Source: Candidatus Iainarchaeum sp.
Lineage (GTDB): Archaea; B1Sed10-29; WALL01
Length of the DNA: 64,000 nucleotides
Reading direction: 5' to 3'
Assembly (NCBI GenBank): GCA_021162685.1
Contig: JAGGYF010000028.1
Location: 4,699-68,698, forward strand
Part shown: positions 3,704-30,772 of the stretch, in pieces
How the letters are laid out: each line of letters begins with the position of its first letter
How positions within the stretch are numbered: the first letter of the stretch is position 1
Notes under the pieces: model-generated
The model's database searches: none
Seen by the model: only the letters and a program-made list of their open reading frames with translations
What the model was told of the DNA's origin: nothing
Position numbers and translations under genes: made by a program

Positions 3704-3707
3704 GAAT

Positions 3708-4091: not shown

Positions 4092-4095
4092 TAAC

Positions 4096-5228: not shown

Positions 5229-5370
5229 ACTGGCAAAAGAGAGGGCTGCAATCGCCAGTGGCACAAGGCCAGAGAATCCTGGACGAATAAGGGAGATAAG
5301 AAAAACCATTGCGAGGATACTCACAATTCAAAATGAAAAGAAAAACACGGAGGTTGAAAAAACAGAATGA
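5149..5370 (+). CDS. rpl29: 50S ribosomal protein L29
   Basis: AILKPKQIREMSPQEREEKLQQLRNEL is canonical L29; starts at GTG, out of frame inside the 3' end of rps3. Confidence 0.8.
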   Translation: MAILKPKQIREMSPQEREEKLQQLRNELAKERAAIASGTRPENPGRIREIRKTIARILTIQNEKKNTEVEKTE

Positions 5371-5672
5371 CAGATGTCTGTCCTGTGTGTGGACTCCCAA
5401 AGGAGCTATGCGTCTGTCAAGAGCTTGCAAAGGAAAGGCAGAAGATAAAGATAAGAACAGAGGTCAAGAAGTACAGAAAGAAGGTCACAATCATAGAAAA
5501 CCTTGACCAGAGCATTGATCTGCATGCTCTTGCAACCCAACTGAAAAAGAAGATGGCGTGCGGAGGAACCGTCAAGGAAAACCGCATAGAGCTCCAGGGG
5601 GCACACGCAGAGAAGGTAAAGAAAGCTCTTATCGCACTAAACTACCCAGAGGATCAAATTGAAATCGTATAG
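5367..5672 (+). CDS. sui1: translation initiation factor SUI1 (aIF1)
   Basis: N-terminal CPVCG..C.C zinc knuckle plus SUI1 core (MACGGTVKENRIELQG); canonical position after L29. Confidence 0.85.
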   Translation: MTDVCPVCGLPKELCVCQELAKERQKIKIRTEVKKYRKKVTIIENLDQSIDLHALATQLKKKMACGGTVKENRIELQGAHAEKVKKALIALNYPEDQIEIV

Positions 5673-5946
5673 AAAGTTGCGTGCACTTGCACGTAACTTA
5701 TTGATCGGACTGGAGGCAAGGGTAGTCAGAAGCTCGGAGAAATCCCTTGAAGGAATGAAAGGGAAAATCGTTGATGAGACCCTGAATACCCTAGTACTCC
5801 AAACAAAGAATGGTGAGAAAAGGATAGCAAAAGACAAAGTGGTTGTTGAGATATCCTTCCCAGAGGGAACATATACCTTTTCTGGGAAGGAGATAAAGCA
5901 ACGGCCGGATGAACGCTTGAAAAAACTTTGGAGAAAGATAAGGTGA
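5659..5946 (+). CDS. rnp1: RNase P protein component 1 (Rpp29/Pop4)
   Basis: Sm-like Rpp29 fold (GMKGKIVDETLNTLVLQT..GEKRIAKDKVVVEI); TTG start; canonical position between SUI1 and S17. Confidence 0.75.
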   Translation: MKSYRKLRALARNLLIGLEARVVRSSEKSLEGMKGKIVDETLNTLVLQTKNGEKRIAKDKVVVEISFPEGTYTFSGKEIKQRPDERLKKLWRKIR

Positions 5947-15159: not shown

Positions 15160-16050
15160 ATGATTGAATTTAGAAAAGAAACACCGATCAAACACGATTT
15201 TGATAGGATTAAGTGTAGTTTTGTTGCTATTGATAAACCTGCTGGGCCATCATCGCATGAAGTAACTGCATGGGTTAAGAAGATTCTAGATGTAAAGAAA
15301 GCAGGGCATGCTGGTACGTTAGACCCAAACGTTACAGGAGTTTTACCCATAGCAATTGGAAAGGCGACAAAACTTTTGCAGGCATTGGCAAAATGCGATA
15401 AGGAATATGTATGCATAGCTAAGTTTGATAGGCAACCAGATAACATTGAGCAGTATTTTAAAGAATTTACTGGAAAATTTTATCAAACACCTCCAAAGGA
15501 GAGTGCTGTAAAAAAACGCATGAGAGTGAGAAGAATATACGAACTCAGGATATTGGAAAAGGAAGACACAAGGGTTCTTTTCTATGTAAAATGCCAGCAT
15601 GGAACATACATAAGAACATTATGTTCGGATATAGGAGAGGTCATGGGAAATCCATGCAAAATGGAAGAACTCAGGAGAATAAGGGCTGGGCCATTTGATG
15701 AAAAGGATTGCTGTACGTTGCACGAATTAAAGGATTTTGGTCCAGAGAGATGTCTGTTACCTCCTGAGAAAGGTGTTTCCCACCTAAAGAGGATGATTGT
15801 ATCAAATAATGCTGTGTCCGCAGTGTGCCATGGAGCAAACCTTGCAAAGGCGGGTGTTGTTGCTATTGATGAGAACATTGAAAAAGGAGAGATGATAGCA
15901 CTAATGACTGTAAGTAATGAATTGATTGGATTAGGAAAAGCACTGAAGTCAACCAATGAGATCGTAGAATCAAAAAAGGGCTTTGTTTGCTCACCTATAT
16001 CCATAATCATGCCAAAAGATATATACCCAAAGAAGTGGAAGCATGGCTGA
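15160..16050 (+). CDS. cbf5: tRNA/rRNA pseudouridine synthase Cbf5 (H/ACA RNP catalytic subunit)
   Basis: TruB motif GHAGTLDPNVTGVLP plus C-terminal PUA domain. Confidence 0.9.
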   Translation: MIEFRKETPIKHDFDRIKCSFVAIDKPAGPSSHEVTAWVKKILDVKKAGHAGTLDPNVTGVLPIAIGKATKLLQALAKCDKEYVCIAKFDRQPDNIEQYFKEFTGKFYQTPPKESAVKKRMRVRRIYELRILEKEDTRVLFYVKCQHGTYIRTLCSDIGEVMGNPCKMEELRRIRAGPFDEKDCCTLHELKDFGPERCLLPPEKGVSHLKRMIVSNNAVSAVCHGANLAKAGVVAIDENIEKGEMIALMTVSNELIGLGKALKSTNEIVESKKGFVCSPISIIMPKDIYPKKWKHG

Positions 16051-16633
16051 GCACTATTTTACTGAGGAACCTACAAGTAAATTAAGAAAGAAAACGATCA
16101 TCATAGAAGTAAATGGAAAAATGTTGGAACTAGAAACTGCGTCTGGTGTTTTTTCATTCGGAAAGCCAGATACTGGTACACTGACATTAATAAGGTACAT
16201 GGAACTCCCAAAACATGGAAAGATTTTGGACATAGGATGTGGCTACGGAATCATAGGGATTGTTGCTGCACTTGAAACAGATTGTGATGTTACAATGAGC
16301 GATGTAAACAAAAGGGCATTGATGCTTGCAAAGAAAAACGCAAAAATGAATGGAGTTAATGTTAGAATTGTCCATAGTAATCTATTTGAAAACATTAACG
16401 AGATGTTTGAGTGTATACTATCAAACCCTCCAATATCTGCTGGAAAGGATATTGTTTTCAAACTGATAGAACAATCATTTGAACATCTGAACAAGGATGG
16501 AACATTACAGATTGTAGCAAGATCGAAAAAAGGAGGGAGAAGTATAAAACAGAAGATGGAAGAGGTATTTGGAAACGTAGAAACTATAGGGAGGCAATCT
16601 GGTTTCCATGTGTATAAATCTATAAAGTATTAA
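16043..16633 (+). CDS. class I SAM-dependent methyltransferase (RsmC/MJ0882-like)
   Basis: LDIGCGYGIIG SAM-binding motif I and NPP catalytic motif (ILSNPPIS). Confidence 0.7.
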   Translation: MAEHYFTEEPTSKLRKKTIIIEVNGKMLELETASGVFSFGKPDTGTLTLIRYMELPKHGKILDIGCGYGIIGIVAALETDCDVTMSDVNKRALMLAKKNAKMNGVNVRIVHSNLFENINEMFECILSNPPISAGKDIVFKLIEQSFEHLNKDGTLQIVARSKKGGRSIKQKMEEVFGNVETIGRQSGFHVYKSIKY

Positions 16634-16715
16634 TAGAGCAAAACACAAAAGGTATGAGGTTTCGGGATACACCTGCTACTACCATAGAAATCATTGAAGC
16701 TGGGGTCGCATAGGC

Positions 16716-16764
16716 CCAAATTACATATGGGCGTTCGTAGTGGGATACAAGATCCCACTATTAG
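16716..16764 (+). repeat. conserved structured element C1: CCAAATTACATATGG-GCGTTCGTA-GTGGGAT/ACAAG/ATCCCAC hairpin-TATTAG
   Basis: Near-identical copies at 36438-36480 and 36553-36603; the copy 3 hairpin differs by compensatory changes; lies about 10 nt upstream of tRNA-Ser. Confidence 0.6.
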
Positions 16765-16774
16765 AAAACCATAA

Positions 16775-16858
16775 GCTGGGGTCGCATAGCCTGGTAGTGC
16801 GCAGGCCTGGAGAGCCTGTTTCCTTCGGGATGCGTGGGTTCAAATCCCACCCCCAGCG
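16775..16858 (+). tRNA. tRNA-Ser (anticodon GGA)
   Basis: Manual fold: acceptor GCUGGGG/CCCCAGC, D-stem GCAU/GUGC, anticodon stem CAGGC/GCCUG with loop CUGGAGA, 15-nt variable arm with UUCG tetraloop, T-arm GUGGG-UUCAAAU-CCCAC, discriminator G. Confidence 0.85.
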
Positions 16859-16952
16859 CTCTACTACTGGAGCTAATAGCGCCAAGAGAACCAAAAGCAA
16901 TATAAACAATTATTGTATAAACTTATAACGTATAATTTTATAAGGTGATTGA

Positions 16953-17225
16953 ATGGCAACTGCTCAGCAAGTACTGCATTATCCAAGGCTTGACACCGTG
17001 CTCATGATAGAAGATGCAATAAAGAAGGCAGGGGAGTATCCAACGAAAACACAACTGTGGAGAAGCCTTCCGAGGCAGGTGATGTACCGCACCTTCAACC
17101 TAGTTCTTGATTACTTGGAAAGTTCTGGGAAGATTTTGATTGACACAGATGGGAGGATTGTCTGGGTGTTTGCCGACAACCCAAAGCTCAGGAAACTTAT
17201 CAAGGAAAGTGTGAAGGTGCGCTGA
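16953..17225 (+). CDS. putative antitoxin (small protein co-oriented and overlapping the downstream toxin gene)
   Basis: 90 aa; stop overlaps the start of the RelE/ParE-like ORF in classic TA arrangement; preceded by TATA-like tataattttataagg and SD ggtga. Confidence 0.5.
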   Translation: MATAQQVLHYPRLDTVLMIEDAIKKAGEYPTKTQLWRSLPRQVMYRTFNLVLDYLESSGKILIDTDGRIVWVFADNPKLRKLIKESVKVR

Positions 17226-17569
17226 TGTACAGCGTGAAGCTGAGCCCAGAATTCAACAAAGAGTTTGCGAAGCTGCAGCAAAGAGCAGAGAAAGGTGGCG
17301 GAGAGGCCACTTATCTCATGAAAATAGTCAACAAAGGAATCTCAAGGATTGCCACGAAACTCACTGTAGGAAAGAAAGTTCCCAAAAAGCTCTGGCCAAA
17401 AGGATACATCAAAAAGTATGGCATAACTAACCTCTGGAAACTGGACTTGGACAAGCACTGGCGGATGCTTTACACGATAACCGGAGACCAGGCAGAACTC
17501 ATTGGAATCGTTCTGGATGTTATGGACCACAAGAAGTACGATAGGAAATTTGGGTACAAGACCAGCTAA
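17225..17569 (+). CDS. RelE/ParE-family toxin-like protein
   Basis: C-terminal pattern LWKLDLDKHWRMLYTITGDQAELIGIVLDVMDHKKY resembles the RelE/YoeB/ParE core (W/RxxY...Y.V..D...I....H..Y). Confidence 0.55.
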   Translation: MYSVKLSPEFNKEFAKLQQRAEKGGGEATYLMKIVNKGISRIATKLTVGKKVPKKLWPKGYIKKYGITNLWKLDLDKHWRMLYTITGDQAELIGIVLDVMDHKKYDRKFGYKTS

Positions 17570-17703
17570 CTCTTGGCACCGCTATACGGCATAGCGTAGC
17601 ACCTGGCAATTTTCCCATAAAATTGCGTGCCCCAGCGCTCTTTAAAGAACGTAATTCAATATAAATTGTTACAAATTATGATTGGTGGTGGAATGACCCA
17701 GGT

Positions 17704-17938
17704 TGTCGTAACACTAAACAAGGAACTAGATAAAGTAGTGGGCATAATTAAAAGCATGTACGGTTTCTCATCCAAGAACAAAGCAATACAATTCATAATC
17801 AGGAGGGAAGCTGAGGAGCTTCTTGAGAAAGAACTAAGACCTGAGTTCGTGCAGAGGATATTGAGGTTGGAGAGAACTGGTAGGTTTAAGAAGTATGCTT
17901 CTTTAGATGAATTAAGGGATGAGGTAGAGTATGCATAA
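17704..17938 (+). CDS. small ribbon-helix-helix-like DNA-binding protein (orphan antitoxin-like)
   Basis: MTQVVVTLNKELDKVVGIIKSMYGFSSKNKAIQFII is an RHH-like N-terminus; start taken at the internal ATG because the upstream part of the ORF covers the direct repeat. Confidence 0.4.
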
Positions 17939-18113
17939 GCTTAGTTAAATTCTACGACTTTGACCACCATGATAAGGTGTATAAGAAGTAAATGCTCAAT
18001 TTGTATCACTACTAGGGACGGTCCACAGCGCTCTACTGTTGGATTTTTCAAATATAATTGCAATGCAACTGTTTCCCAAATATATTTAAATACTATTACA
18101 TAGGAAAAAACTG

Positions 18114-20888
18114 TTGGTGAGAAGAATGAAAAAAGCCTTAGCAATCCTCTTGTTGGTTTGTGCTGCAGCAGCACTTCCAGACCTAGCAATAGAACGTTTT
18201 TCTCATGAGCTAGGTGAAGATTTTACAGTAAGCTTTACTGCTGTAATTACAAACAAAGGGACTAACTCAACAGAATCCTGTATAATGGCTTTTTCCCAGG
18301 ATGAAGAATGGGCAAATAATAAAATAATAACTATTGGCGCTCTTGAACCAGGCCAGTCCCAAAAAATCAACTGGCAATGGGAGTACTATGAGCCAGGTGA
18401 AAAAAAGCCAGGCATTTTTGTTGACGCATTTAATCCTGAATGCCAATGCTATCAAGGACCTGGTCATGCTGGAAGCATTGAAGAAGAAAACGAGGAAAAC
18501 AATGTCGCTTATCTGAGTTTTGAACTTGAAGCAGAGAATAAGCCGCCAGTAGCGATACTTGCTGTTCCAGTAAGTGTTTGCTTAGAAGGAGGAGAATGCA
18601 CTCCTCCTTGCTCAGTTGGCAAGCCATGCAGGTTTGATTGCTCGCAAAGCTACGACCCTGACGGCTTTATTAGCTGTTGGAGCATTGAATTCGGTGATGG
18701 AACAGCCCAAGCGTCAGAATGCGCAGCAGAAAAAGAAAACAAGCCTGGCGTGATCGAGCACAGCTACACTAAACCAGGAATCTACGAAGTCAAACTTACT
18801 GTCACTGATAACAAGGGAGCTAGTGGTTCAGCTACCGCAGGAATACAGGTCGGTGAAGTCACCAACCAGCCACCAGTAGCAAAAATAAGGCAAGTGGGCG
18901 ACTGCTATGCTTCCCAAAACTGTAATTTTGACGGGTCAAACTCTTATGATGCTGATGGGAAAATAGTGAAGTTTACTGTTGACTTTGGTGATGGTGAAAC
19001 CATTTCCTCAGAAGGCAGTCCAGCAGGGTTCGGGCATTCTTATTCAAGGCCCGGCACTTACGGAGTAACCCTCACCGTATTTGATGACAAAGGAGAAAAA
19101 GGATACGATAAAATTCTTGTCGAAGTTGAAGAATCCCCACTAGAAGAAGGCGTAGTGGAACTAGCAAAATGCCTTGGAGAAAAAAGTGTCCTTTACACGA
19201 ATGATGTCTGTCCATACTGCATAAAACAAAAAAGGCTTTTTGGAAACGCTTACCAGTACTTAACTGTCATGGACTGCGGCATTGACCTCTCCTTATGCAA
19301 AGAAGTGAAAGGTGTACCGACTTGGGAGATAAATGGAGTTAAATACACTGGTTACAAGTCCCTTGAAGAATTAAAGCAATTGAGTGGGTGTGGGGTTCCT
19401 GTTGAGGGATTGTATGCAAAAATCGGGGAGGAGTTTACCCTCTCAATAAACCAGCCAGTAAAAATAGTAGACTATATTGACTCCCATGCAAATCCATTGA
19501 AAATCACGCTACTAAGCATCAACCCGATCTGCCACCCTAAAGAACCGTGTCCCACTGTTATTCCTTATGCCCAAGTAAAAGCAGAGTTTAGTGGAGAAAC
19601 CGAAGTGCGAAAGATTACTACTGGAAGTGAAATAAATTTATTTGGGGTTGTATTGCGCACCATTAGCGTTGACAACATAGCACCGGGGTCAGTAACGCTT
19701 GTTGTCAAAAAGCCAGGAGTTATGTACTGCGAGCCAAACGTGGAATACCATTTTACCAACAAGTGCAAGTGTCCAGAAGGAACAAACTTGGTGTGGTTAA
19801 GCCGCTCTGTTTTTGTCTGCAAGAAAGAAGAGATTGTCCATGCGCGGCTGGGTCAAGCCTTTGAACTAAAGCCCAAGCAAATAGCGAAACTAATGGATTA
19901 TAGAGTCTTGACAATGCGTTTGGACAGCATTGTTTCTTCAGAAAACAAGAAAGCGGCTATTATCACTGTATGGCCAACATATGAGAGAGTCACCTTGGTG
20001 AAAGAGGAACCAATAACAGAAAAAGCAACAATGAGGCCTGTGACAGCCACCGCAGGCAAGGTAGTGACAGGTGTAAAAGTAGTACCAAGTATTACCAAGC
20101 CTGTTGAATCCCCACCAATTGTTCCCAGGCAATACCAAGTTTTAGAAGGAGAGTCAGTTAACGTGTTTGGAGTTAGGATGATGGTTAAAGAATTAACTGA
20201 AAGGTCTGCAGTATTTGTGATAACAAAGCAGACACCTTGGACTTCATGCGACCAAGCATGCAAGCAGAAGGGTTATGCAGGAGGACACTGCTCGTCAGCA
20301 TGTACAGGAGTTAGCATCGGAGAGGAGTTCTGTCCACAGCCAGTATTTGAAGCCAAAGAAGAGACACCCCCTCTTCCTCCAGTGCTGAGTTGCTGCTGCC
20401 AGCCAGAAGAAGAAACAATAAAAATTGTTATTCACAAGGGGTGGAACTTGTTCTCGATGCCTGGTGAAATAAGACCTGTATCAGAAAAGTGTGACAGCAG
20501 GAATTGGAGGGTTTTTGAGTATAACAGGGAAACAAGAAAATTTGAGGCAGTCAAATGGCCTGAGATTGGCAAGGCTTATTGGCTTTATGCTGACAAGCCC
20601 TGCACTGCAGAAGTGAGAATATCAAAACCTGTTTTGCTGGAAGAACTTGAGGGTATTTTGCCTGGTTGGAACCTCGTGCCAGTAGTTCCTGATATGATTG
20701 GAAAATCCCTTGAAGAATTAAGTGATTGTACTGGGCTGAAGGTTTACACATACGATACCAGCAGCAGGAAGTGGATAAAAGTGGATAAAATAACAGAAGA
20801 ATTCTATGGAAGGGGTCTGGCAGTAAAATCAGAGCTCAAATGCTCTTTTAACACACTGCCTTCCATTCCCCCTTTCCCAGAGGAGTGA
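18114..20888 (+). CDS. giant secreted Cys-rich surface protein: signal peptide, CARDB-like domain, two PKD domains, thioredoxin-fold domain with CPYC motif, and a Cys-rich C-terminal region
   Basis: N-terminal signal peptide MKKALAILLLVCAAAALP; PKD signatures CRFDCSQSYDPDG...FGDGT...YTKPGIYEVKLTVTDNKG and NFDGSNSYDADG...FGDGE...YSRPGTYGVTLTVFDDKG; CPYC at nt 19208-19219; many Cys throughout. Confidence 0.8.
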   Translation: MVRRMKKALAILLLVCAAAALPDLAIERFSHELGEDFTVSFTAVITNKGTNSTESCIMAFSQDEEWANNKIITIGALEPGQSQKINWQWEYYEPGEKKPGIFVDAFNPECQCYQGPGHAGSIEEENEENNVAYLSFELEAENKPPVAILAVPVSVCLEGGECTPPCSVGKPCRFDCSQSYDPDGFISCWSIEFGDGTAQASECAAEKENKPGVIEHSYTKPGIYEVKLTVTDNKGASGSATAGIQVGEVTNQPPVAKIRQVGDCYASQNCNFDGSNSYDADGKIVKFTVDFGDGETISSEGSPAGFGHSYSRPGTYGVTLTVFDDKGEKGYDKILVEVEESPLEEGVVELAKCLGEKSVLYTNDVCPYCIKQKRLFGNAYQYLTVMDCGIDLSLCKEVKGVPTWEINGVKYTGYKSLEELKQLSGCGVPVEGLYAKIGEEFTLSINQPVKIVDYIDSHANPLKITLLSINPICHPKEPCPTVIPYAQVKAEFSGETEVRKITTGSEINLFGVVLRTISVDNIAPGSVTLVVKKPGVMYCEPNVEYHFTNKCKCPEGTNLVWLSRSVFVCKKEEIVHARLGQAFELKPKQIAKLMDYRVLTMRLDSIVSSENKKAAIITVWPTYERVTLVKEEPITEKATMRPVTATAGKVVTGVKVVPSITKPVESPPIVPRQYQVLEGESVNVFGVRMMVKELTERSAVFVITKQTPWTSCDQACKQKGYAGGHCSSACTGVSIGEEFCPQPVFEAKEETPPLPPVLSCCCQPEEETIKIVIHKGWNLFSMPGEIRPVSEKCDSRNWRVFEYNRETRKFEAVKWPEIGKAYWLYADKPCTAEVRISKPVLLEELEGILPGWNLVPVVPDMIGKSLEELSDCTGLKVYTYDTSSRKWIKVDKITEEFYGRGLAVKSELKCSFNTLPSIPPFPEE

Positions 20889-21074
20889 TTGAAAATGAAG
20901 TTAATTGTCTTGCTTTTGGTTTGCGCACTTTTGCTTACACTAGGGTGCGTGGAAGTGACAGAAGAAACACCATTAAATGAAACCAATGTAAGTGTTGAGG
21001 AAACAACTGGAATCCCTACGCCAACTCCAGAAATGTGGAATGAGACAGCAGAGCCACCAGAGTTGCCGTTTTAG
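20889..21074 (+). CDS. small secreted Thr/Glu-rich peptide with N-glycosylation sequons
   Basis: Signal peptide MKLIVLLLVCALLLTLGC, then NET, NVS, NET sequons; TTG/ATG start immediately after the stop of the giant protein. Confidence 0.4.
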   Translation: MKMKLIVLLLVCALLLTLGCVEVTEETPLNETNVSVEETTGIPTPTPEMWNETAEPPELPF

Positions 21075-21121
21075 AGATTTCTTGACCCCACTTGCGGTGT
21101 TTCTTCAACTCATAGTCAGGC

Positions 21122-21550
21122 TCATAAAACAAGCAAAATCAGACTTATTGCCCCTAGTATTACTGCAAACAACTTTGTCGTAGTCAAACTCTCGTGAAAG
21201 AACAATATACCTCCCACAACAGCAATGATAAACGAGAGGCTTCTTATTGTGGAGACAAGTGATACTGGCCCGATATGTATCCCATATAGAAATGAAAAAT
21301 ATGCTATCCCCGCAACAACTCCTATCAGTATTATGAGAGGCAGTTCGTTTTTTACACCCATAATATCTGTCTTTCCGAGTATGAGTGAAAGAGCAAGAAC
21401 TGTTAGAAACATAAATAATGTTATCCACGTTACGACGATGAATCTATCCCCTTTGGCAACTTGTATAATAATGTTAGGATACCATAGAGAATCATAGCAG
21501 AAACTGCGGGGATTAACCAGTTCATCACAACACCCCCATAAGCAATGCAA
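21122..21550 (-). CDS. EamA/DMT-superfamily small membrane protein (4 TM)
   Basis: Four hydrophobic helices with an EamA-like pattern; the true start is likely internal, since the annotated N-terminal 45 aa are not hydrophobic. Confidence 0.45.
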   Translation of the reverse strand: MHCLWGCCDELVNPRSFCYDSLWYPNIIIQVAKGDRFIVVTWITLFMFLTVLALSLILGKTDIMGVKNELPLIILIGVVAGIAYFSFLYGIHIGPVSLVSTIRSLSFIIAVVGGILFFHESLTTTKLFAVILGAISLILLVL

Positions 21551-22634
21551 TTCCTAAACCAAGTATAATTATCCCTGCTACAAGGTGCAAGTGCCTAAGC
21601 TTTCCTTTCCTCCACTTCTCAACACGCTCTGGTGACAATCCTTTGTAAACCATAAATGTTATGAAAAGCATTGGGAGAATGAATATGGCATTATACAAAA
21701 GAAGCAACATAATTGCCAATGCCTGTGTTGCTCTTCTCGCTAATAATCCCAAAACAACAATATATGGACCACTTGTACAAGGCAACAAAAACAAACTGAC
21801 AATGAACCCAATAAAGAATGCACCTGGAGCACTTGTAACTGATTTTATTATGCGTTTTAGTGTTGGCCTCCATGACTGTGGGACTTCCATAACAAAGCCG
21901 CCACCACCATATCTCAGATAATCTTTAATGTTTAGTAAACCAACAACAACTGCAAGTGCACCTACTATATAGTAAATGGTTCGCGTTGCACCTGCCCATT
22001 GTATTGCAGAAAATAATCCTAAACCCATCAGAAAGTAAGAGATAAATATTGCTAATGAAAAAGCAATTCCTGCTTTTAACACCCTGAACCTATCACCAGC
22101 CACAAGGATTGTTGTAAGTAGGATAATAAGGACTGCAAATGCACACGGATTTATGGCATCAACAGCAGAACCAGCAATAACTGCTGAAACCAGTGAAAGA
22201 AGATTAACGCCCTCAACAGGCGATACCTCTTTTGTTGTAACGAATGTTGCATTTTCTATCTTTTCTCCAGGAGATGGACAGCCATATGTGATACACTCTT
22301 TAATTGTATTTTCTATGGCTTTTGGTGTTGGTTCACCAAAGATACCACGTGGATCCCATCCAACAATGACTTTGTTACCTATAAATAACGTAGGCACTCC
22401 TTGTATTGTTGTGTTGTATGCTTCTGCAGTCCTTTTAAACAATGCCCGGTTTGTTGTGTTTCTGTATATCTCAAATCGCTCAGCATGGAACTCGGGGTAT
22501 TTTGCCTCCATCTGCTCCAAAAAGGGCTCTTCTTTTGCACAATGCGGGCATCCTTGGCCCCAGAAGAAATATGCTGTTACATTATATGCAAAAACAGACG
22601 AAATGAGCAATAAAAGGAGGAATTTTCCCTTCAT
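21525..22634 (-). CDS. thiol:disulfide oxidoreductase: signal peptide + thioredoxin-fold (CPHC) domain fused to a CcdA/DsbD-like transmembrane domain
   Basis: WGQGCPHCAKEEPFL Trx motif; CcdA-type conserved Cys in TM helices (INPCAFAVL, LPCTSGPY); start moved to MKGKF (ATG at 22634 on the minus strand) with SD AAGGAGTGA. Confidence 0.75.
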   Translation of the reverse strand: MKGKFLLLLLISSVFAYNVTAYFFWGQGCPHCAKEEPFLEQMEAKYPEFHAERFEIYRNTTNRALFKRTAEAYNTTIQGVPTLFIGNKVIVGWDPRGIFGEPTPKAIENTIKECITYGCPSPGEKIENATFVTTKEVSPVEGVNLLSLVSAVIAGSAVDAINPCAFAVLIILLTTILVAGDRFRVLKAGIAFSLAIFISYFLMGLGLFSAIQWAGATRTIYYIVGALAVVVGLLNIKDYLRYGGGGFVMEVPQSWRPTLKRIIKSVTSAPGAFFIGFIVSLFLLPCTSGPYIVVLGLLARRATQALAIMLLLLYNAIFILPMLFITFMVYKGLSPERVEKWRKGKLRHLHLVAGIIILGLGIALLMGVL

Positions 22635-22732
22635 AGTATCACTCCTTTTATTAATCAACCGAAATATTTATATATAATTTTGAATATAAATTCATTACTG
22701 TATTGAATATATATTCAAAAGGAGGTGAATAT

Positions 22733-23065
22733 ATGCCATATGGAGATGGAACAGGACCTTTAGGATTAGGACCAATGACTGGAAGAGGTCTTGGATACTG
22801 CGCTGGATATAATGCTCCAGGTTTTGTTTTTGGCCCAGGTTGGGGCAGAGGAAGAGGCTGGCGCAGAGGATGGGGCAGAGGATTTGGATGGAGGTTTTGG
22901 GGTGCACCATATTGGAGAGCACCATATCCACAACAATACTGGAAACCAACAAAGGAGGAAGAAAAGACCATATTACAAGAAGAACTAAAAGCTTTAGAAG
23001 AAGAAATGAAGGCAATTGAAGAGGAAAGAAAAGCCATCCAGAAAAAACTTGCAGAGCTGAAGTAG
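22733..23065 (+). CDS. DUF5320 family protein (Gly/Arg/Trp-rich N-terminus, C-terminal coiled coil)
   Basis: GPLGLGPMTGRGLGYCAGYNAPGF...GWGRGRGWRRGWGRGFGW, then a coiled coil EEEKTILQEELKALEEEMKAIEEERKAIQKKLAELK; strong SD AAAGGAGGTGA. Confidence 0.6.
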   Translation: MPYGDGTGPLGLGPMTGRGLGYCAGYNAPGFVFGPGWGRGRGWRRGWGRGFGWRFWGAPYWRAPYPQQYWKPTKEEEKTILQEELKALEEEMKAIEEERKAIQKKLAELK

Positions 23066-23497
23066 ATGCCAAGACCAAGAAAACCCAGGTTGGTTGCAGG
23101 CGTCCCATCTATAACATATTTCAAACCTGCTGGCGTGCCTTTGCGTGGGGTTGATGAGGTAGTGTTAACAGTTGAGGAATATGAGGCTATAAAACTAAAA
23201 GACCTCGAAGGAAAGACACAGGAAGAAGCAGCAAAAGAGATGGATGTATCGCAACCAACATTCTTTAGAATATTAGAAAGCGCAAGGAAAAAGATTAGCG
23301 ATGCAATTGTTAATGGAAAGGTAATACGTATAGAAGGAGGTAGTTATATGGTAGGAAGAGGAAGAATGGGAGGGAGCGCACTTGGACCAGGAGGTTACTG
23401 TGTATGCCCAAAGTGTGGATATAAGGTTCCACATCAGAGGGGTGTTCCGTGCTATAGTATGACATGTCCAAAGTGTGGAACACAGATGACAAGGTGA
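23066..23497 (+). CDS. DUF134 (UPF0251) HTH DNA-binding protein with C-terminal Cys4 zinc ribbon
   Basis: MPRPRKPR...F.P.G.P...[39 protein letters not shown] is the DUF134 signature; C-terminus CVCPKCG...CPKCG. Confidence 0.75.
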
Positions 23498-23501
23498 AAA
23501 G

Positions 23502-23864
23502 ATGAAAGTCATCAGGAACCCGAATTGGATAGAAGGAAAGGGCGAGATGAAATACAAGAAGAGGATTTTGATGGAGAATGTCCCACCTTCAGTTAATTTA
23601 ATAGAGGATGTTGTGATACCACCAGGTGGGAAGATCCCCTCACATGCACACAAGGCAACAACCGAGTTGTTTTATATAACAAGTGGGAAGGCAAGGATGA
23701 AAGTCCAGAATAAAGAGTTTGAGGTTAACCCAAAAGATATGGTTTTAGTTGAGGTTGGGGAGAGTCATAGCTTTATCAATAATTCAGATGAAGATTTTGA
23801 AATGATAGTGCTTAAAATAAATTTCAGAAAAGATGACGCAATTTTATATGAGGTGAAAAAATGA
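23502..23864 (+). CDS. cupin domain protein
   Basis: Cupin beta-barrel motifs with conserved His (PPGGKIPSHAHKATTELFYITSGKARM...GESHSF). Confidence 0.6.
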   Translation: MKVIRNPNWIEGKGEMKYKKRILMENVPPSVNLIEDVVIPPGGKIPSHAHKATTELFYITSGKARMKVQNKEFEVNPKDMVLVEVGESHSFINNSDEDFEMIVLKINFRKDDAILYEVKK

Positions 23865-24259
23865 GAATAGCAGTAGCTTCGTCAGGACCAGGGCTTAATG
23901 CAGAAGCAAGCCCAATGTTTGGGAGATGTCCCTTTTTTGTAATTGTCAACATTGAGGAAAACAATATAAAGGAAGTTAAAAGCATTCCAAATACTGCAAC
24001 AGCATATCGTGGCGGAGCAGGTATATCGGCAGCAGAACTTGTGGGCAATGAGAACGTTGATGCAGTAATAGCTGGTGCAATAGGACCAAGGGCGTTTGAT
24101 GTGCTTAAACAGCTTGGGATAAAGCAATACATTGGCGTGCCAGGAACCGTAGAAAAAAACATTGACCTACTACTTAAAGGAGAGCTTAAAATGGTCGGCA
24201 GTCCAACAGGACCAATGAGGATGCCTCCTGGAAGAAGGGGCAGGAGAGGAGGTCAATAA
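23861..24259 (+). CDS. NifX/NafY/NifB-C-terminal-like dinitrogenase FeMo-cofactor-binding family protein
   Basis: MRIAVASSGPGL...FGRCPFFVIVNIEEN...GAG...AELV...VDAVIAGAIGPRAFDVL..LGIK matches the Nitro_FeMo-Co fold family. Confidence 0.75.
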   Translation: MRIAVASSGPGLNAEASPMFGRCPFFVIVNIEENNIKEVKSIPNTATAYRGGAGISAAELVGNENVDAVIAGAIGPRAFDVLKQLGIKQYIGVPGTVEKNIDLLLKGELKMVGSPTGPMRMPPGRRGRRGGQ

Positions 24260-24260
24260 A

Positions 24261-24470
24261 ATGCCAGAAGGAGTACCACGAACTGATGAAGAAAGAAGGG
24301 AAAGGCACAAGGAGAAATATGGAACAGAGGAAATCCCAGAAGAACGAAAAGGAAAGGCATCAAAAGCACTTGAGCAGAAGAAGAATCTGATTTTGGCTAT
24401 AAAGGTAGTGCTGGTGCTTGCAATTCTTTACTTTCTCTGGATAATTGTCAAGAGGGGTTGGGTTACTTGA
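24261..24470 (+). CDS. small membrane protein (single C-terminal TM)
   Basis: 69 aa with a charged N-terminus and one TM helix; sits inside the translationally coupled operon. Confidence 0.35.
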   Translation: MPEGVPRTDEERRERHKEKYGTEEIPEERKGKASKALEQKKNLILAIKVVLVLAILYFLWIIVKRGWVT

Positions 24471-25711
24471 ACAAGCTGAAACAAGGAGAGAGGGCAGCAG
24501 CAAAAGTGAGTGTGGGAACCCTAATCTTATCGCTAACAAAGGGAATTGTTGGATACATCACAGGAAGCACTGCTCTGGTAACAGATGCATTTCATTCCTT
24601 AGCAGACCTTATTGCTGCTGCGTCCTCCTGGTTTGGCCTAAAGATCTCACAGAGAAAACCAGATGAAATATTCCCTTACGGATATTACAAAGCAGAAAAT
24701 CTCGCTGGTCTGGTAGTTGCGTTGGTGATACTATACGCTGCTGCAACCCTACTTTTTGAAGGATTTTCCCGTATTGGTAAACCTGCAACAATACATGAAC
24801 CAATGCTCGCAATTGCAACGTCTATTGTATCCATTGGAATCGCATTTCTTTTCTATAAATATCTTAAGGCAGTAGGAGAGAAGATCAATTCGCCATCGTT
24901 AAAAGCAAATGCTAATGATAAACTTGTAGATATGGCATCTTCTTCGTTGGTGTTTATTGCCCTTGTGGCATCTTACCTAAACATACCTTACATTGAAGGA
25001 ATCGTGACAGTATTGATCTCGTTTTTAGTGATGAAAATTGGCCTAGAAACCGCAAAAGATTCTGTTCTGGCACTTATGGATGTCAGTCCGAGCAAGGATA
25101 TTGAAAAAAGGCTGGAATCTGTTTTATTATCTGTAAAAGGTGTAAGAAAAATAAAAAATCTCAAGCTTAGGAAAGCTGGGCCATTTGTATTTGGTGATGT
25201 TGAAATAGAAGTAAAAGGAAGTATTGATGTAAAAAGGGCACACAGTATAACAGAGGAGATACAAAAGAGTGTGAAGAGGAACATAAAAGAGATAGAGTTC
25301 ATTACAGTACATGTTGAGCCACATAAACCAAGAAGGCAAAAGGTTGTTGTTCCTGTGGAGAATGCAGATGGTATGCGTTCAAAAATAGTGAAGCATTTCG
25401 GGAGAGCCAGATACTTTGTTCTTGTTGAGCTGGATAATAACAAGGTAAAGAAACACAAGGTAGTAAAAAATCCATTTATTGGTGAAAAGATAAGGGCGGG
25501 TCTAAAAACTGCTGGATTTCTTGCTGAAAAAGGGATTGATGCTGTGATAACAAAATCAATAGGTGAGATCTCATTCCATACGCTAAGAGACCACTTTGTG
25601 GAAATCTACCACGCAAAAGGTGAGAATGTTGATGATACTATAAAGCTTTTTATTAGAGGGAAACTTAGACTACTTCGCAGACCGACAAAAGAAGCTGGCG
25701 GAATTGCATGA
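24458..25711 (+). CDS. cation diffusion facilitator (CDF) metal transporter fused to a C-terminal NifX-like cofactor-binding domain
   Basis: N-terminal 6-TM CDF with HSLADL motif and cytoplasmic CTD; the C-terminal 110 aa (VVVPVENADGMRSKIVKHFGRARYFVLV...GIDAVITKSIGEISFHTLRDHFVEIY) resemble the NifX-like protein at 23861; TTG start. Confidence 0.75.
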   Translation: MGYLNKLKQGERAAAKVSVGTLILSLTKGIVGYITGSTALVTDAFHSLADLIAAASSWFGLKISQRKPDEIFPYGYYKAENLAGLVVALVILYAAATLLFEGFSRIGKPATIHEPMLAIATSIVSIGIAFLFYKYLKAVGEKINSPSLKANANDKLVDMASSSLVFIALVASYLNIPYIEGIVTVLISFLVMKIGLETAKDSVLALMDVSPSKDIEKRLESVLLSVKGVRKIKNLKLRKAGPFVFGDVEIEVKGSIDVKRAHSITEEIQKSVKRNIKEIEFITVHVEPHKPRRQKVVVPVENADGMRSKIVKHFGRARYFVLVELDNNKVKKHKVVKNPFIGEKIRAGLKTAGFLAEKGIDAVITKSIGEISFHTLRDHFVEIYHAKGENVDDTIKLFIRGKLRLLRRPTKEAGGIA

Positions 25712-26544
25712 GGATATGTATAACAGGAGGAAAAGGTGGGACAGGTAAGTCATTGATAGCAACATCGCTCGCCTATCATCTTGGAAAAAATCACAAGGTG
25801 CTTCTTGTTGACCTAGATGTTGATTGCCCAAATGACCATCTTATACTGTCAACAAAAAGGGAGGTGTTAAAGGAGGTAAAACAGACCATTCCTGTGCTTA
25901 ACGAAAACAGATGTAAAAAATGTGGGATATGCAGTAATATATGCAGGGAGAATGCCATAGTATTCATAAGAAAACGATTTCCTATCTTCCTTCTTGACCA
26001 GTGTAATGGATGTAAAGCATGTATGGTTGCATGCCCTGCAAATGCAATAGAGGAAGGAGAGCGCGCATATGGTGTAATCTATAAGGGAAAAAATGAACGG
26101 ATTGACATGCTAGTAGCAGAACTCGTGCCAGGACAAAAAGAGGGCTCTCCTTTGGTACATGAAGCAATAAAACTTGTGGGTGAGAACAAAAAATACGATT
26201 TTGTTATTATGGATACTGCAGCAGGAATGCATTGTACTGTCATATCTGCACTTAGAGAATGCGACTATATACTCGCTGTAACCGAACCCACACCATTGGG
26301 CGCACATGATCTCAACCTAATCCTTGATTTAATTGATGAATTAAACATTCCTTCTGGTGTTATATTAAACAAGAGGGGCATTGGAAACGAGAAAGAGGTA
26401 AGAGAAATCACAAAAAGGCATGGAAAGAAGATTGTTGCAGATGTCCCATACAGTAAAGAGGTCATGGAAGCGTATTCCAAAGGCATCCCAGTACCGATTC
26501 GGTTTGTTGAGAAGTTGGTCTCATTTGTGGAGGAGATGAAATGA
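25708..26544 (+). CDS. MinD/Mrp-family P-loop ATPase with inserted double 4Fe-4S ferredoxin domain (COG1149-like, CooC-related)
   Basis: Deviant Walker [10 protein letters not shown]; two Cys clusters [11 protein letters not shown] and [12 protein letters not shown]. Confidence 0.8.
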
Positions 26545-26927
26545 AGGGTATATATGTACTCATTATAGATATTTCAAAGGATGTAACAATCAGAGTTGGC
26601 TCGCTTGGTAATATGCTTTTCAAAAAAGGTACGTATGCATATGTTGGATCTGCCCAAAACAATGTTGAAAAGAGGATTAGAAGGCACATGAATAAGAAGA
26701 AGAAATTATTCTGGCACATTGATTATCTTCTGAAAGAACCAGGGATTAGAATAAGAAGGGTGTTATACAAAAAAGCACCAAAAACAGAGGAATGCAGAAC
26801 AGCATCTGTTATCAGCAAAAGAGGGGAGGCAATTCCACAATTCGGATGCTCTGATTGTAAATGCAATAGCCATCTTTTTAAGATCACAGAGATGCCACTA
26901 AGAGGGTTTAGAGAGGTGATTACCTGA
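26541..26927 (+). CDS. DUF123 family GIY-YIG-like domain protein
   Basis: KGIYVLII...[20 protein letters not shown] matches the archaeal DUF123 / GIY-YIG clan signature; C-terminal Cys pairs (CSDCKC). Confidence 0.6.
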
Positions 26928-26995
26928 ATCCTATTTACGGTCCTGTACCCTCATGGAGACTTGGAGTTTCACTTGGAGTAGACCCTGTATGCAAA

Positions 26996-27685
26996 ATGCC
27001 AAAAATTTGCTCATTTGATTGTATCTATTGTCAGTTGGGAAGAACGGTCGTAAAAACGACAAAAAGGGAGAAATTTGTTGAAGCGGAGATTGTTCGCAGA
27101 GAGTTGAAGAAGGCATTACGTATTGTAACACCAGACGTTATAACATTCTCTGGGGTATCAGAACCAACACTTGCATCAAATATTTCAGACATCGTGAATG
27201 TAATAAAAGAGGAAACCGATATCCCTGTTGCTATTCTAACAAATGCTTCCCTTATATACAAAAAGGAGGTTATGGACGACCTCATGCATTTTGATATTGT
27301 ATGTGCGAAACTTGATGCTCCAAACCAAAAGATATTTGAGCAGGTAAACAGACCATCATACGGAATAAAAATTGATGATATTATCAACGGAATAAAAGAA
27401 TTTAGAAAAGGATTCACGGGGAAACTCGCACTACAAATTATGTTAGTTAACGAAAATAAACCATACGTGAAAGAAATTGCTAACATAGCAAGGGATATAA
27501 AACCTGATGAGATTCAACTTGATACTCCTCTTAGACCCTGTCCTGTACCTGCCCTTCCAGAGGAGGAGATGTATGAGGCAAAGCAATGCTTTGATGGATT
27601 GAATGTGATAATGGTGTATGATAGGAAAAAACCAGAGGCAAAAGCAATAGATAAGTATGAGACACACCTGAGGAGACCCACATGA
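26996..27685 (+). CDS. short radical SAM enzyme (CxxxCxxC)
   Basis: CSFDCIYC at residues 5-12 of the ATG-initiated ORF; the in-frame upstream peptide YGPVPSWRLGVSLGVDPV (open from 26912, after a TAG) resembles the conserved N-terminus of this radical SAM subfamily, so the real start is probably a non-ATG codon near 26924-26933. Confidence 0.7.
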   Translation: MPKICSFDCIYCQLGRTVVKTTKREKFVEAEIVRRELKKALRIVTPDVITFSGVSEPTLASNISDIVNVIKEETDIPVAILTNASLIYKKEVMDDLMHFDIVCAKLDAPNQKIFEQVNRPSYGIKIDDIINGIKEFRKGFTGKLALQIMLVNENKPYVKEIANIARDIKPDEIQLDTPLRPCPVPALPEEEMYEAKQCFDGLNVIMVYDRKKPEAKAIDKYETHLRRPT

Positions 27686-28566
27686 TAAAAATCACAGTAG
27701 TTTCTGGAAAGGGAGGAGTTGGAAAGAGTAGCATAGCAGCATCCATGGCACTGGTCTTGTCAAAAAACAGAGATATTGTTGCTGTTGATTGTGATGTTGA
27801 TGCACCAAACCTTGGGCTGTTGCTTGGTGTAAAAAAGGAGGGCTTCTCATACAAAGAAGTAGGTACAAAAGAGAAAGCGTCTCTCATAGAAGATAGGTGT
27901 ATAAGATGTAGAAAATGCGTGGATATCTGTGTGTTTTCAGCTATCTCATGGGATAACCTACCGATATTTGATAAATATCTGTGTGAGGGATGCGGAGCGT
28001 GCCAACTTGTATGTCCTGTTGATGCAATTGAACTCATAAAAGTGCAGAATGCATTTATTGGATTTACTGACACACAGTATGGGTTCCCTGTTGTTGGTGG
28101 TCAGCTAAAACCAGGAGAATCTGGGTCTGGTGATGTAGTAACATTAGTAAAGGAAAAGGCAGAGGAGATAGCTAACAAAAGAGGGATTGAGACAATGATT
28201 ATAGACTCTGCAGCAGGTATTGGTTGTCCTGTGATTGCCTCAGTAACGGGTTCAGATTACGTTGTCGCTGTCACAGAACCAACACCCGCAGCATTTAGTG
28301 ACCTTAAGAGGGTTTTGGAAGTTGTTGAACATTTCAACATACCATATGGGATAATTATCAATACATGGAACACCAATCCAGCGTTTACAGAAAAGATTGA
28401 GAAATTCGCTTCTGAGAACGAAATAACGTTACTTGGAAAAATCCCATATGACAAAGCCTTTATTGATGCCTTGGTTCAGCTGATGCCTGTTGTTGCTTAC
28501 GATAAGAGGTTTAAAAAATTGTTTAAAAGTATTCTAGAAAAAACTCTGGCAGAGGTAGAGAAATGA
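27682..28566 (+). CDS. second MinD/Mrp-family P-loop ATPase with inserted 4Fe-4S ferredoxin domain
   Basis: Deviant Walker A SGKGGVGKS; CIRCRKCVDIC and CEGCGACQLVCP. Confidence 0.8.
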   Translation: MIKITVVSGKGGVGKSSIAASMALVLSKNRDIVAVDCDVDAPNLGLLLGVKKEGFSYKEVGTKEKASLIEDRCIRCRKCVDICVFSAISWDNLPIFDKYLCEGCGACQLVCPVDAIELIKVQNAFIGFTDTQYGFPVVGGQLKPGESGSGDVVTLVKEKAEEIANKRGIETMIIDSAAGIGCPVIASVTGSDYVVAVTEPTPAAFSDLKRVLEVVEHFNIPYGIIINTWNTNPAFTEKIEKFASENEITLLGKIPYDKAFIDALVQLMPVVAYDKRFKKLFKSILEKTLAEVEK

Positions 28567-29363
28567 AAAGGATTATTATGTTAATGGTGTTGACTATGCT
28601 TTTGGGTTGCATTCAGAAAACAGAAAAATTTGAGGGGGTTTCTGCTGCTTCTGGCAGCATAAGGATCATAACACTTTATGACAACAATCCTTACGATGAA
28701 CGTTTTGAAACGGGTTTTGGCTATTCTTCATTAATTCAAGCTGGAAACAATACTATACTCTTTGACACAGGAGGAGATAGCATCACACTTTTAAGAAACA
28801 TGGAAAAGGCTGGGGTAAAGCCTGAAACAATAAACATTATTGTGCTTTCCCACATACATGGTGATCATACTGGCGGTCTTCTTGGCTTACTTGAGCATAC
28901 GAAAGCCCCCATTGTATACCTTCCATCATCGTTCCCTCAAGATTTTAAAGAAAAGGTAAAGACCAATGCAAAACTTGTTGAAGTCAGTGCGCCATCTGAA
29001 ATAAGCAAGGGGATTTATTCAACAGGAGAGCTTGGAACATGGATAAAAGAACAGTCACTAATCATAAAAAGCAGTAAGGGAATTATAATAATTACAGGGT
29101 GCGCTCATCCAGGGATTGTTGAAATCGTTAAGAAAGCAAAGGAGATTACTGGCGAAAGGGTTTACTTGGTTCTGGGCGGGTTTCATCTCAATGGCGCAAG
29201 TGAGAATGAGATCAGGAACATTGTTAGGGAATTCAGGGAGCTTGGAGTGGAAAAAGTAGCACCATGCCATTGTACTGGAGAAACTGCCACAAAAATTTTT
29301 AAAGAAGAATATAAAGAGTATTTCATAGAAAACGGGGTTGGAAAAACAGTAGTGGTAGAATGA
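28563..29363 (+). CDS. metallo-beta-lactamase-fold lipoprotein
   Basis: Lipobox-like LLGC after a signal peptide; HxHxDH motif SHIHGDHTGG. Confidence 0.7.
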   Translation: MKRIIMLMVLTMLLGCIQKTEKFEGVSAASGSIRIITLYDNNPYDERFETGFGYSSLIQAGNNTILFDTGGDSITLLRNMEKAGVKPETINIIVLSHIHGDHTGGLLGLLEHTKAPIVYLPSSFPQDFKEKVKTNAKLVEVSAPSEISKGIYSTGELGTWIKEQSLIIKSSKGIIIITGCAHPGIVEIVKKAKEITGERVYLVLGGFHLNGASENEIRNIVREFRELGVEKVAPCHCTGETATKIFKEEYKEYFIENGVGKTVVVE

Positions 29364-30193: not shown

Positions 30194-30195
30194 GT

Positions 30196-30771: not shown

Positions 30772-30772
30772 T

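Follow-up and report, generated by a model that had tools for sequence, protein, structure and literature searches.

Two very small toxin-antitoxin cassettes between direct copies of a tRNA-Ser 3' end in a DPANN archaeon

How do toxin-antitoxin genes come to lie at the edge of a ribosomal-protein gene cluster, framed by copies of the end of a tRNA gene? This question is raised by a stretch of 64,000 nucleotides (nt) from Candidatus Iainarchaeum sp., an uncultured DPANN archaeon (contig JAGGYF010000028.1, positions 4,699 to 68,698; the whole stretch is called the window below, and our coordinates refer to it). Here, a ribosomal-protein/SecY/Cmk/Cbf5 cluster is followed by a small-domain methyltransferase gene and then by tRNA-Ser(GGA), behind which lie two cassettes delimited by copies of the tRNA 3' end. 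We consider it probable (about 0.6) that conservative site-specific recombination used the 3' end of tRNA-Ser(GGA) as its attachment site on two or more occasions, whatever the original size of the cassettes was.

Copies of the tRNA-Ser 3' end

The tRNA-Ser(GGA) gene is intact (16775–16859, + strand), as found by ARAGORN and by Rfam (RF00005, 57.2 bits). The 12-mer at its end, CCCCAGCGCTCT, is made up of the 7-nt 3' strand of the acceptor stem, the discriminator G and 4 trailer nt. Exact copies are at 16851–16862 and 17630–17641, and one with a single mismatch is at 18023–18034. Allowing at most one mismatch, three matches were counted on both strands of the 64 kb against 0.06 expected, and none of 100 shuffled sequences reached three. 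All three copies are on one strand within 1.2 kb, with none elsewhere in the window. Another tRNA-end sequence, CAGCGCTCTACT, is found in the window at 16854 and 18026 only.

These copies, hereafter cores a, b and c, set the layout of the locus. Core a (CCCCAGCGCTCTACTACTGGA, 16851–16871, +) is attL-like and runs from the acceptor 3' strand over the discriminator into the trailer (13 nt); core b (17630–17641, +), an exact CCCCAGCGCTCT, is the junction of the two cassettes; core c (CCaCAGCGCTCTACTgtTGGA, 18023–18043, +) is attR-like. Cores a and c match at 18 of 21 positions (86%), the trailer sequence (ACT..TGGA) included, and all four related loci that we compared (L009–L012) keep the tRNA-Ser trailer CAGCGCTC of the window. 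The order is core a, cassette 1 (16863–17629), core b, cassette 2 (17642–18022) and core c, so that the inserts adjoin the tRNA gene and are bounded by direct repeats which include the tRNA end. Moreover, an independent ENA assembly contig of 1071 nt is 100% identical to 16702–17772. Since it covers a hairpin element upstream of the tRNA, the tRNA itself, cassette 1, core b and the start of cassette 2, these junctions are no artefact of assembly or binning.

An earlier reading of the letters alone (the sequence-only reading) had pointed out the second copy of the 12-mer at 17630–17641 and the return of tRNA-end sequence at 18026, and both are indeed present. It described the repeats as nested, whereas the arrangement is tandem. 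Its own doubt, that the repeats might be too short to exceed chance, is answered for these 64 kb by the count.

A complete and a decayed toxin-antitoxin operon

Cassette 1 contains a complete type II toxin-antitoxin operon (module 1), the transferable unit of which comprises promoter/operator, antitoxin and toxin (16890–17571, +) and shows ~75% DNA identity to homologous modules in two other loci (L003/L005 and L006/L008). The unit includes an imperfect palindrome, TATAAACTTATA-ACG-TATAATTTTATA (16913–16945, also delimited as 16916–16942), the predicted operator/promoter. This palindrome is kept in L003 and L006 and matches itself reversed in the homologous loci (the D4 repeat in L006); it probably acts as an operator bound by antitoxin 1. 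The genes for antitoxin 1 (90 amino acids (aa), 16953–17225, +) and toxin 1 (114 aa, 17225–17569, +) are preceded by AGGTGA and GAAGGTG, respectively, and share one base (TGATG). A partner of 87–95 aa was found upstream of each toxin 1 homologue seen, the antitoxin coming first throughout; the two genes overlap by 1–4 nt in the window, L003/L004, L006, L019 and L022, and directly abut in L013. Between the toxin 1 stop and core b, a spacer of 58 nt (17572–17629, +) can form small hairpins, GCTAT..ATAGC and GCAATTTT..AAAATTGC, and folds no better than shuffled sequences (z = −0.88).

Antitoxin 1 matched no Pfam family above threshold. Its single-sequence AlphaFold2 (AF2) model (predicted local distance difference test score, pLDDT, 77) has an H-H-H-beta-beta-H topology, i.e., a predicted winged helix-turn-helix with a C-terminal helix, and Foldseek matched it to winged-helix domains of the BlaI/MarR/Fur/IclR/DtxR type (probability ~1, E 0.02–0.08). 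From this model, antitoxin 1 is predicted to be a winged-helix DNA-binding protein.

Toxin 1 is under the Pfam and NCBIfam thresholds of every named family (ParE_toxin, E = 3.7e-4 and 21.4 bits with a cut-off of 23 bits; RelE_StbE, 13.9 bits with a cut-off of 27.9; YafQ, 14 with a cut-off of 87), and ParE_toxin was matched at E ≤ 0.01 by 10 of the 31 members of its family. Its alignment-based AF2 model (pLDDT 88.4) has a RelE/ParE-superfamily fold of YoeB/YafQ-like type: the top Foldseek matches in the PDB were ParE2 (5cw7), YoeB (6l8e/2a6r), YafQ (4mmj) and RelK (3oei), all with a probability of 1.0 and template modelling (TM) scores of 0.5–0.6 when query-normalised and up to 0.71 when target-normalised. 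The residues W79, R80, Y83, H102, Y105, F109 and Y111 do not vary among 31 sequences. In the alignment, HRLVYT of Staphylococcus aureus YoeB is the counterpart of the WRxxYT strand, where R80 takes the place of its Arg, and H102/Y105 presumably correspond by position to YoeB His83/Tyr84. An Arg combined with a C-terminal His/Tyr is the signature of YoeB/YafQ-type RNases. Given these residues, toxin 1 is more likely to be an mRNA interferase than a ParE-type gyrase poison, and RNase activity would be expected of it.

The pair of module 1 is a genuine RelE/ParE-superfamily toxin-antitoxin module. Like YefM-YoeB, DinJ-YafQ, RelBE and ParDE, it has the antitoxin gene first and overlapping, a toxin of ~90–115 aa with the RelE/ParE fold, and a promoter palindrome; toxin 1 probably resembles YoeB and YafQ in the Arg of its central strand and in the His/Tyr near its C-terminus. 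Antitoxin 1, in contrast, is unlike the usual Phd/YefM, RelB/DinJ ribbon-helix-helix or ParD antitoxins, being a predicted winged-helix protein outside the Pfam families. The toxin 1 family gave 34 matches at 90% clustering, the few named ones being Diapherotrites or unclassified archaea, and 877 cluster representatives at profile level (E ≤ 1e-3). It is an uncharacterised RelE/YoeB-like clade of its own.

Cassette 2 holds a second toxin-antitoxin operon, with a broken toxin gene. Module 2 (17660–17991, +) consists of an imperfect palindrome/promoter (17660–17680), an intact antitoxin gene and a toxin relic, and is 70% identical in DNA to another locus, L026, across 17660–17901. Antitoxin 2 (81 aa, 17693–17938, +) belongs to the DUF2683 family (PF10884, 28.6 bits, over the 27-bit cut-off), and the identical protein is named DUF2683 family protein at NCBI, where the call is also 81 aa (P0155); an alternative GTG start at 17627 is unlikely. 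Its N-terminus is ribbon-helix-helix-like (a strand, then helices), and five homologues were found at 65–67% identity. The closest of those with context (L026/L027, 65%) has an overlapping 90-aa gene downstream, which ends in ...LVKFYDFRHHDDIYKT. This partner has a weak YhaV match (E = 0.019) and a RelE-like C-terminus, which point to a putative toxin.

No intact toxin gene was found downstream of antitoxin 2 at the window locus, where a relic remains (17931–17991, +): ATG CAT at 17931–17936 and the final ~16 codons, which are read in a different frame (SLVKFYDFDHHDKVYKK*, 17938–17991). A tblastn search with the 90-aa partner of L026 matched 17941–17985 (80% over residues 75–89, E = 0.002), and the start MH is conserved with that partner, the frame being lost a few codons on. 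As only the start and the C-terminal end are kept, ~210 nt have been lost internally. We read cassette 2 as a decayed toxin-antitoxin operon with an orphan antitoxin.

The base composition of the two cassettes differs. The GC content at third codon positions (GC3) of the cassette 1 genes, 0.59 for the toxin and 0.55 for the antitoxin, is the top two of 84 open reading frames (ORFs; mean 0.36, standard deviation (sd) 0.059), that is, 3–4 sd over the window mean, and the module 1 span has a GC content of 0.435 (92nd percentile of the window). Cassette 2 has an ordinary GC content (0.377, 23rd percentile) and a mildly raised GC3 (0.43–0.45). The DNA homology of cassette 1 to the modules of L003 and L006 extends from the operator to the toxin stop (16890–17571) and nothing beyond. 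Homologues of module 1 lie between T2SSF and PAC2 (L003), by a cold-shock gene (L006), by HicA (L019) and by NMD3 (L022). In the hosts compared, the GC3 of the module is 0.45–0.66 (0.53–0.66 except for the L013 toxin), while that of the hosts is 0.36, 0.43, 0.46 and 0.82. Because it stays steady in differing hosts, the module has the look of an import, the clearest cases being the window and L003. We take cassette 1 to be a discrete transferable unit that was imported recently.

Some observations on the homologous loci stand by themselves. A module 1 homologue with 50% toxin identity lies between EF-2 and EF-1alpha, in the str operon, in L013–L018 (~3655–4512), and was seen in 24 contigs from several samples. 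Candidate flanking repeats around the homologues of L003 (14/19) and L006 (14/17) were rejected as being at chance level, with an estimated ~1 expected per 1.3 kb. L003/L004, from a higher-GC Diapherotrites metagenome-assembled genome whose toxin is 82% identical, has an IS605 OrfB/TnpB gene, a MazE-PIN pair and another PIN gene within 10 kb (2461–3417, 5031–5789 and 18997–19395). Addiction modules are dense in this Diapherotrites lineage.

As regards the genes, the sequence-only reading had recognised the 90-aa ORF overlapping a 114-aa RelE/ParE-like ORF, which stands, with a one-base overlap. The homologies that it expected were borne out in part: the fold of toxin 1 is RelE/ParE/YoeB-like, and RHH-like applies to antitoxin 2, whereas antitoxin 1 is a predicted winged-helix protein instead of a Phd/RHH-like one. 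Its small RHH-like ORF beyond the second repeat exists, but is the antitoxin of a second operon. The decay that it supposed can be seen directly in the toxin 2 gene, and the raised GC and codon usage that it attributed to all these ORFs hold for cassette 1 but not for cassette 2, which is near the host.

Other duplicated tRNA ends and the gene neighbourhood

The 5' end of tRNA-Ser is duplicated as well. The sequence AAGCTGGGGTCGCATAG, AA plus tRNA-Ser nt 1–15, occurs at 16697 and 16773; the left copy (16697–16713, +) is one direct repeat of a hairpin-element insertion, and the first 15 nt of the tRNA with the 2 nt before them are the right copy. Even at three mismatches, AAGCTGGGGTCGCATAG has two matches in the window (0.08 expected). 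Between the copies, in the tRNA-Ser leader, is a 59-nt two-hairpin element (16714–16772, +): hairpin 1 is GCCCA/TGGGC with the loop AAUUACAUA, and hairpin 2 has a 9-bp stem with the loop ACAAG. The sequence-only reading was right that the tRNA 5' end is duplicated upstream, by 17 nt in fact and not 15, but it counted the duplication as part of the island; the repeat instead brackets this separate element. The 17-nt duplication is a third, independent event, which inserted the 59-nt element into the tRNA-Ser leader.

The element is 95% identical to 36438–36481 and 85% identical to 36553–36602, and a covariance model detected three copies, all of them in the window (the others at 36435–36492 and 36550–36607). 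For 14 proposed pairs in the three copies, 97.6% of cells are standard pairs, against 33–62% in shifted registers, and four pairs have changed on both sides; the fold z-score of the tRNA-Ser copy is −5.1. Since pairing is kept and compensatory changes occur, the hairpins are maintained, either as RNA or as single-stranded DNA. No further copies were found by the covariance model in 11 related loci, nor in IMG/VR, and three matches in JGI metagenomes were discarded as unrelated AT-rich sequences. The hairpin units and the spacers belong to no Rfam family.

The element's two other copies immediately follow a tRNA-Leu(GAG) gene (36315–36433), which ARAGORN and Rfam missed because of a 31–35-nt intron in the D-loop. 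This intron is predicted at 36333–36363 by a perfect bulge-helix-bulge motif, and the same tRNA is intronless in L009 and L011. Behind the gene, ~185 nt are bracketed by a 32-nt exact direct repeat (36414–36445 and 36631–36662), which consists of the last 21 nt of tRNA-Leu with the first trailer base and of the first 11 nt of the element. The ~185-nt stretch contains two tandem units, each opening with the two-hairpin element and closing with CCCCATAAAGGACGCTC.

Several ideas on these units were tried and dropped. The 76-nt unit at the tRNA-Ser 5' end is not a tRNA intron: none of its registers forms a bulge-helix-bulge (H, h1, h2), while the tRNA-Leu intron, as a positive control, gives a perfect one (4-bp helix, two 3-nt bulges). 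The notion that the boundary of the 76-nt unit coincides with the tRNA-Leu intron position was refuted, the predicted splice site being 3 nt further on. An end motif common to the cassettes and the tRNA-Leu units (CCCATAAA..CGCTCT) is an 11-nt match of marginal significance (p ~0.05).

Related loci present similar features. The tRNA-end sequence CCCAGCGCT is found again 132 nt behind tRNA-Ser in L009/L010, with only two copies in 12.6 kb (CTCACCCCCAGCGCT vs CTCACCACCCAGCGCT downstream). Small GC-rich hairpin inserts surround tRNA-Ser in the relatives (..ACGTGCC plus the hairpin AGCTGAGTTTCAGCT or GCCTGAGTTTCAGGC; L009/L010 6683–6828, L011 6600–6697 and 6900–6952), and L009 has a GC hairpin insert of ~50 nt behind tRNA-Leu.

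As to the neighbourhood, Pfam scans placed the Cbf5 gene at 15160–16050 and the small-domain methyltransferase gene at 16043–16633; the product of the latter is 100% identical to an NCBI protein of a 'Candidatus Diapherotrites archaeon'. These scans cover the ORFs from 15 to 64 kb; the first 15 kb is the ribosomal-protein/SecY cluster, as judged by synteny with the annotated clusters of relatives. The promoter region of a PKD-domain surface protein gene (18126–20888) follows directly after core c. Intrinsic terminators and sigma-70-type promoters in the array were not above shuffles, and such models are not appropriate for an archaeon. From tRNA-Ser to S13, the interval is 17 kb in the window (16860–34010) and 2.2 kb in relatives (L009, 6697–8874). 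It contains genes for the PKD surface protein, DsbD-like, EamA, DUF5320, DUF134, cupin, NifB-like and cation efflux proteins, two Fe-S MinD-type ATPases, GIY-YIG/DUF123, radical SAM, UDG, and NrdD with its activase. The interval is a rearrangement hot spot which splits the ribosomal-protein supercluster. Within it, a 43-nt AT-rich near-perfect palindrome, TTTTGAATATAAATTCATTACTGTATTGAATATATATTCAAAA (22678–22720), lies between the divergent DsbD-like (minus strand) and DUF5320/DUF134 genes and may be a shared operator or promoter. Farther away, an apparently solitary N6/N4 DNA methyltransferase gene (56688–57794, minus strand; no search aimed at a restriction partner was made) lies opposite the Kae1/TsaD gene, and a 19-nt exact tandem-spaced repeat, GGCAGAGAAGAAGGGTAAA, is found at 55547 and 55576 (55547–55594), just 5' of the Kae1 gene. 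PADLOC defence models had zero matches.

The related loci L009–L012, with 55–59% methyltransferase identity, keep the order Cbf5-methyltransferase-tRNA-Ser(GGA), tRNA-Ser coming right after the methyltransferase gene, and further on S13-S4-S11-RpoD-tRNA-Leu(GAG)-L18e-L13-S9. Behind tRNA-Ser, all four lack toxin-antitoxin genes and have other genes. No close relative was found among GTDB representatives, where a scan with Cbf5 gave one Micrarchaeota match (44%).

Origin and meaning of the array

Archaeal integrated elements use tRNA targets, with att sites down to 8 bp and a median of 17 bp, and re-use of the same integration site gives rise to arrays of elements (PMC6563490). Cores of 12–21 nt, a tRNA target and tandem re-use are therefore within the range documented for such elements (PMC6563490). 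Like tRNA-targeted tyrosine-recombinase elements and genomic islets of archaea and bacteria, the array is inserted at a tRNA 3' end, has repeats with the tRNA terminus and leaves the tRNA intact; it also shares with them the foreign composition of the cargo (cassette 1), the re-use of one site and short cores, as in Thaumarchaeota (8–26 bp) (PMC6563490). Unlike them, it has no integrase inside or near and no attP partner that we could find (searched: ORFs from 15 to 64 kb, IMG/VR), its units are just 0.4–0.8 kb, and a toxin-antitoxin operon is their sole content.

In our model, serial conservative site-specific recombination at the tRNA-Ser 3' end would have left two very small cassettes arrayed head to tail. 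Each would be bounded by the core CCCCAGCGCTCT, i.e., the terminal 8 nt of the tRNA and 4 nt more, extended to 21 nt in the outer pair. Core a would represent attL, core c, still with the native trailer, attR, and core b a hybrid junction. The winged-helix antitoxin 1 presumably represses its operon at the upstream palindrome and neutralises toxin 1, a RelE/YoeB-like protein that is probably a ribosome-dependent mRNA endonuclease. Cassette 2 would be an older operon of the same logic, with a DUF2683 ribbon-helix-helix antitoxin and a RelE-like toxin whose gene was destroyed by the internal deletion, so that the antitoxin would now be an orphan. The cassettes may have arrived in either order, and its decay and host-like composition suggest that cassette 2 is older than cassette 1. 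Since none of the ORFs scanned between 15 and 64 kb encodes the recombinase, the cassettes would now be immobile scars or mobilisable only in trans.

Several findings weigh against integration by site-specific recombination. Pfam scans of the ORFs from 15 to 64 kb revealed no integrase, recombinase or transposase domains, in line with the absence of an integrase already reported by the sequence-only reading. No contig bearing attP or the toxin was found in IMG/VR, which was scanned with the three tRNA-end cores and with the toxin. Plasmid and phage collections held no toxin 1 homologue by tblastn, and a viral or plasmid source of the cassettes was rejected on these empty scans. The inner core b is just 12 nt long. 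Similarity to the tRNA on the 5' side of cores b and c is not significant (p 0.27 and ~1); the last 6 nt before core b, TGCGTG, do equal tRNA-Ser 16831–16836, a weak hint. None of the module 1 homologues elsewhere, in five contexts, adjoins a tRNA, so this family does not generally travel by tRNA integration. Finally, the relatives compared differ at genus level or higher and the tRNA-Ser-S13 interval is rearranged in the window, so that the absence of the cassettes there is weak evidence for a precise insertion. In the comparison with an empty site that the sequence-only reading had proposed, the cassettes are absent from L009–L012, but these relatives are only 55–59% identical in the methyltransferase and have other genes at the site.

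Could the repeats be chance matches next to toxin-antitoxin genes that this intergenic region has had since ancestral times? At 12 nt the repeats are short, and the relatives are too distant for a strict empty-site test; the count of three matches against 0.06 expected, with 0 of 100 shuffles reaching it, the GC3 of module 1 at 3–4 sd over the mean, its presence in unrelated contexts with a composition foreign to each host, and its lack at this site in all four related loci make such an origin extremely improbable. We also regard as very unlikely that local duplication or illegitimate recombination (slippage, unequal crossing-over, repair) at a hairpin-rich tRNA gene produced the repeats, with the modules inserted illegitimately and unrelated to them. 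The tRNA-Leu locus may well be read as a tandem duplication of a unit made of tRNA 3' end and hairpin, given that the 32-nt repeat holds the first 11 nt of the unit and that AATCCGAG is common to unit 1 and to what follows the second copy; moreover, module 1 homologues occupy many non-tRNA sites without recognisable att sites. At tRNA-Ser, however, the segments between the three cores have no mutual similarity and so did not arise by duplication, what is repeated is in every case exactly the tRNA terminus, and the trailer shared by the outer cores is what attL and attR would be expected to have. A recombinase would then account best for the repeats.

A possible, if somewhat unlikely, variant is that the cassettes were always miniature and non-autonomous, each an operon with a short recombination site, moved by a recombinase encoded elsewhere in the manner of cis-mobilizable elements (CIMEs) or Xer-dependent dif modules, the same machinery having made the other tRNA-end duplications. 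The margins between operon and core are small (27 and 58 nt in cassette 1, 18 and 31 nt in cassette 2), and two independent decays to a near-exact operon would be a coincidence. Two gene-less inserts also have duplicated tRNA ends (59 nt at the tRNA-Ser 5' end, ~185 nt with the 32-nt repeat at tRNA-Leu), L009/L010 repeat CCCAGCGCT behind tRNA-Ser, and no recombinase is near (ORFs from 15 to 64 kb). Against this, the homologues of module 1 sit in five other contexts without a tRNA and with flanking repeats at chance level, the cassettes and hairpin inserts share no end sequence beyond the marginal 11-nt match, and neither a candidate recombinase nor a free form is known. That it is the operon which survives deletion could be put down to selection for the addiction module alone, and this, with the lack of tRNA linkage of the module 1 family elsewhere, favours remnants of larger elements. 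Taken together, our preferred reading and the always-miniature variant make integration at tRNA-Ser highly probable. The two successive tRNA-targeted integrations of the sequence-only reading are upheld, as at least two separate insertions; of its further claim, that they decayed from larger elements, decay as such is visible in the toxin 2 gene, while cassettes that were always small and moved in trans would suit the data just as well.

Small recombinase-less units, often with toxin-antitoxin genes, are known as CIMEs in streptococci and as Xer-dependent dif modules in Acinetobacter plasmids. The array resembles both in having recombinase-less units between recombination sites, in tandem (accretion), with addiction modules as typical cargo. 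It differs in that those systems are bacterial and use defined sites, the att of a known integrative and conjugative element or 28-bp XerC/XerD sites in alternating orientation, whereas the sites here are direct copies of a tRNA end and have no known cognate recombinase or autonomous partner. Integron gene-cassette arrays have been reported in Archaea too. Like these, the array is composed of small promoter-poor/self-contained cassettes arranged head-to-tail, toxin-antitoxin cargo is common, and a short recombination site closes each unit; unlike them, it has no IntI and no attI and is anchored on a tRNA end. Candidate attC sites at 17572–17659 and 17992–18043 were rejected: they have neither the R''-L''/L'-R' imperfect palindrome nor GTTRRRY, and fold no better than shuffles.

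In essence, the locus adds a well-documented DPANN case to a familiar phenomenon, the islet of addiction modules anchored on a tRNA. As a scar of insertion the array is of an ordinary kind, though its size is unusually small and the ORFs scanned include no integrase. Next to nothing is known of mobile genetic elements in DPANN archaea. This locus indicates that even tiny DPANN genomes gain addiction modules horizontally, that a tRNA 3' end bordering a ribosomal-protein cluster has been a landing site more than once, and that a toxin-antitoxin pair can be caught decaying to an orphan antitoxin. With its unusual partner, a predicted winged-helix antitoxin, toxin 1 also marks out a clade of RelE/YoeB-like toxins not characterised before. 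An unexplained side observation is the hairpin element, together with the repeated duplication of tRNA ends. That Diapherotrites have an undescribed way of inserting very small DNA units at tRNA gene termini, without an element-borne integrase, seems doubtful to us; each event would duplicate 12–32 nt of the tRNA end, the cargo would range from a 59-nt two-hairpin element to a toxin-antitoxin operon, and the whole would amount to an archaeal, tRNA-anchored analogue of recombinase-in-trans cassette systems. If the hairpin element and the tRNA-end duplications did share one mechanism, they would represent a new type of miniature mobile DNA in archaea.

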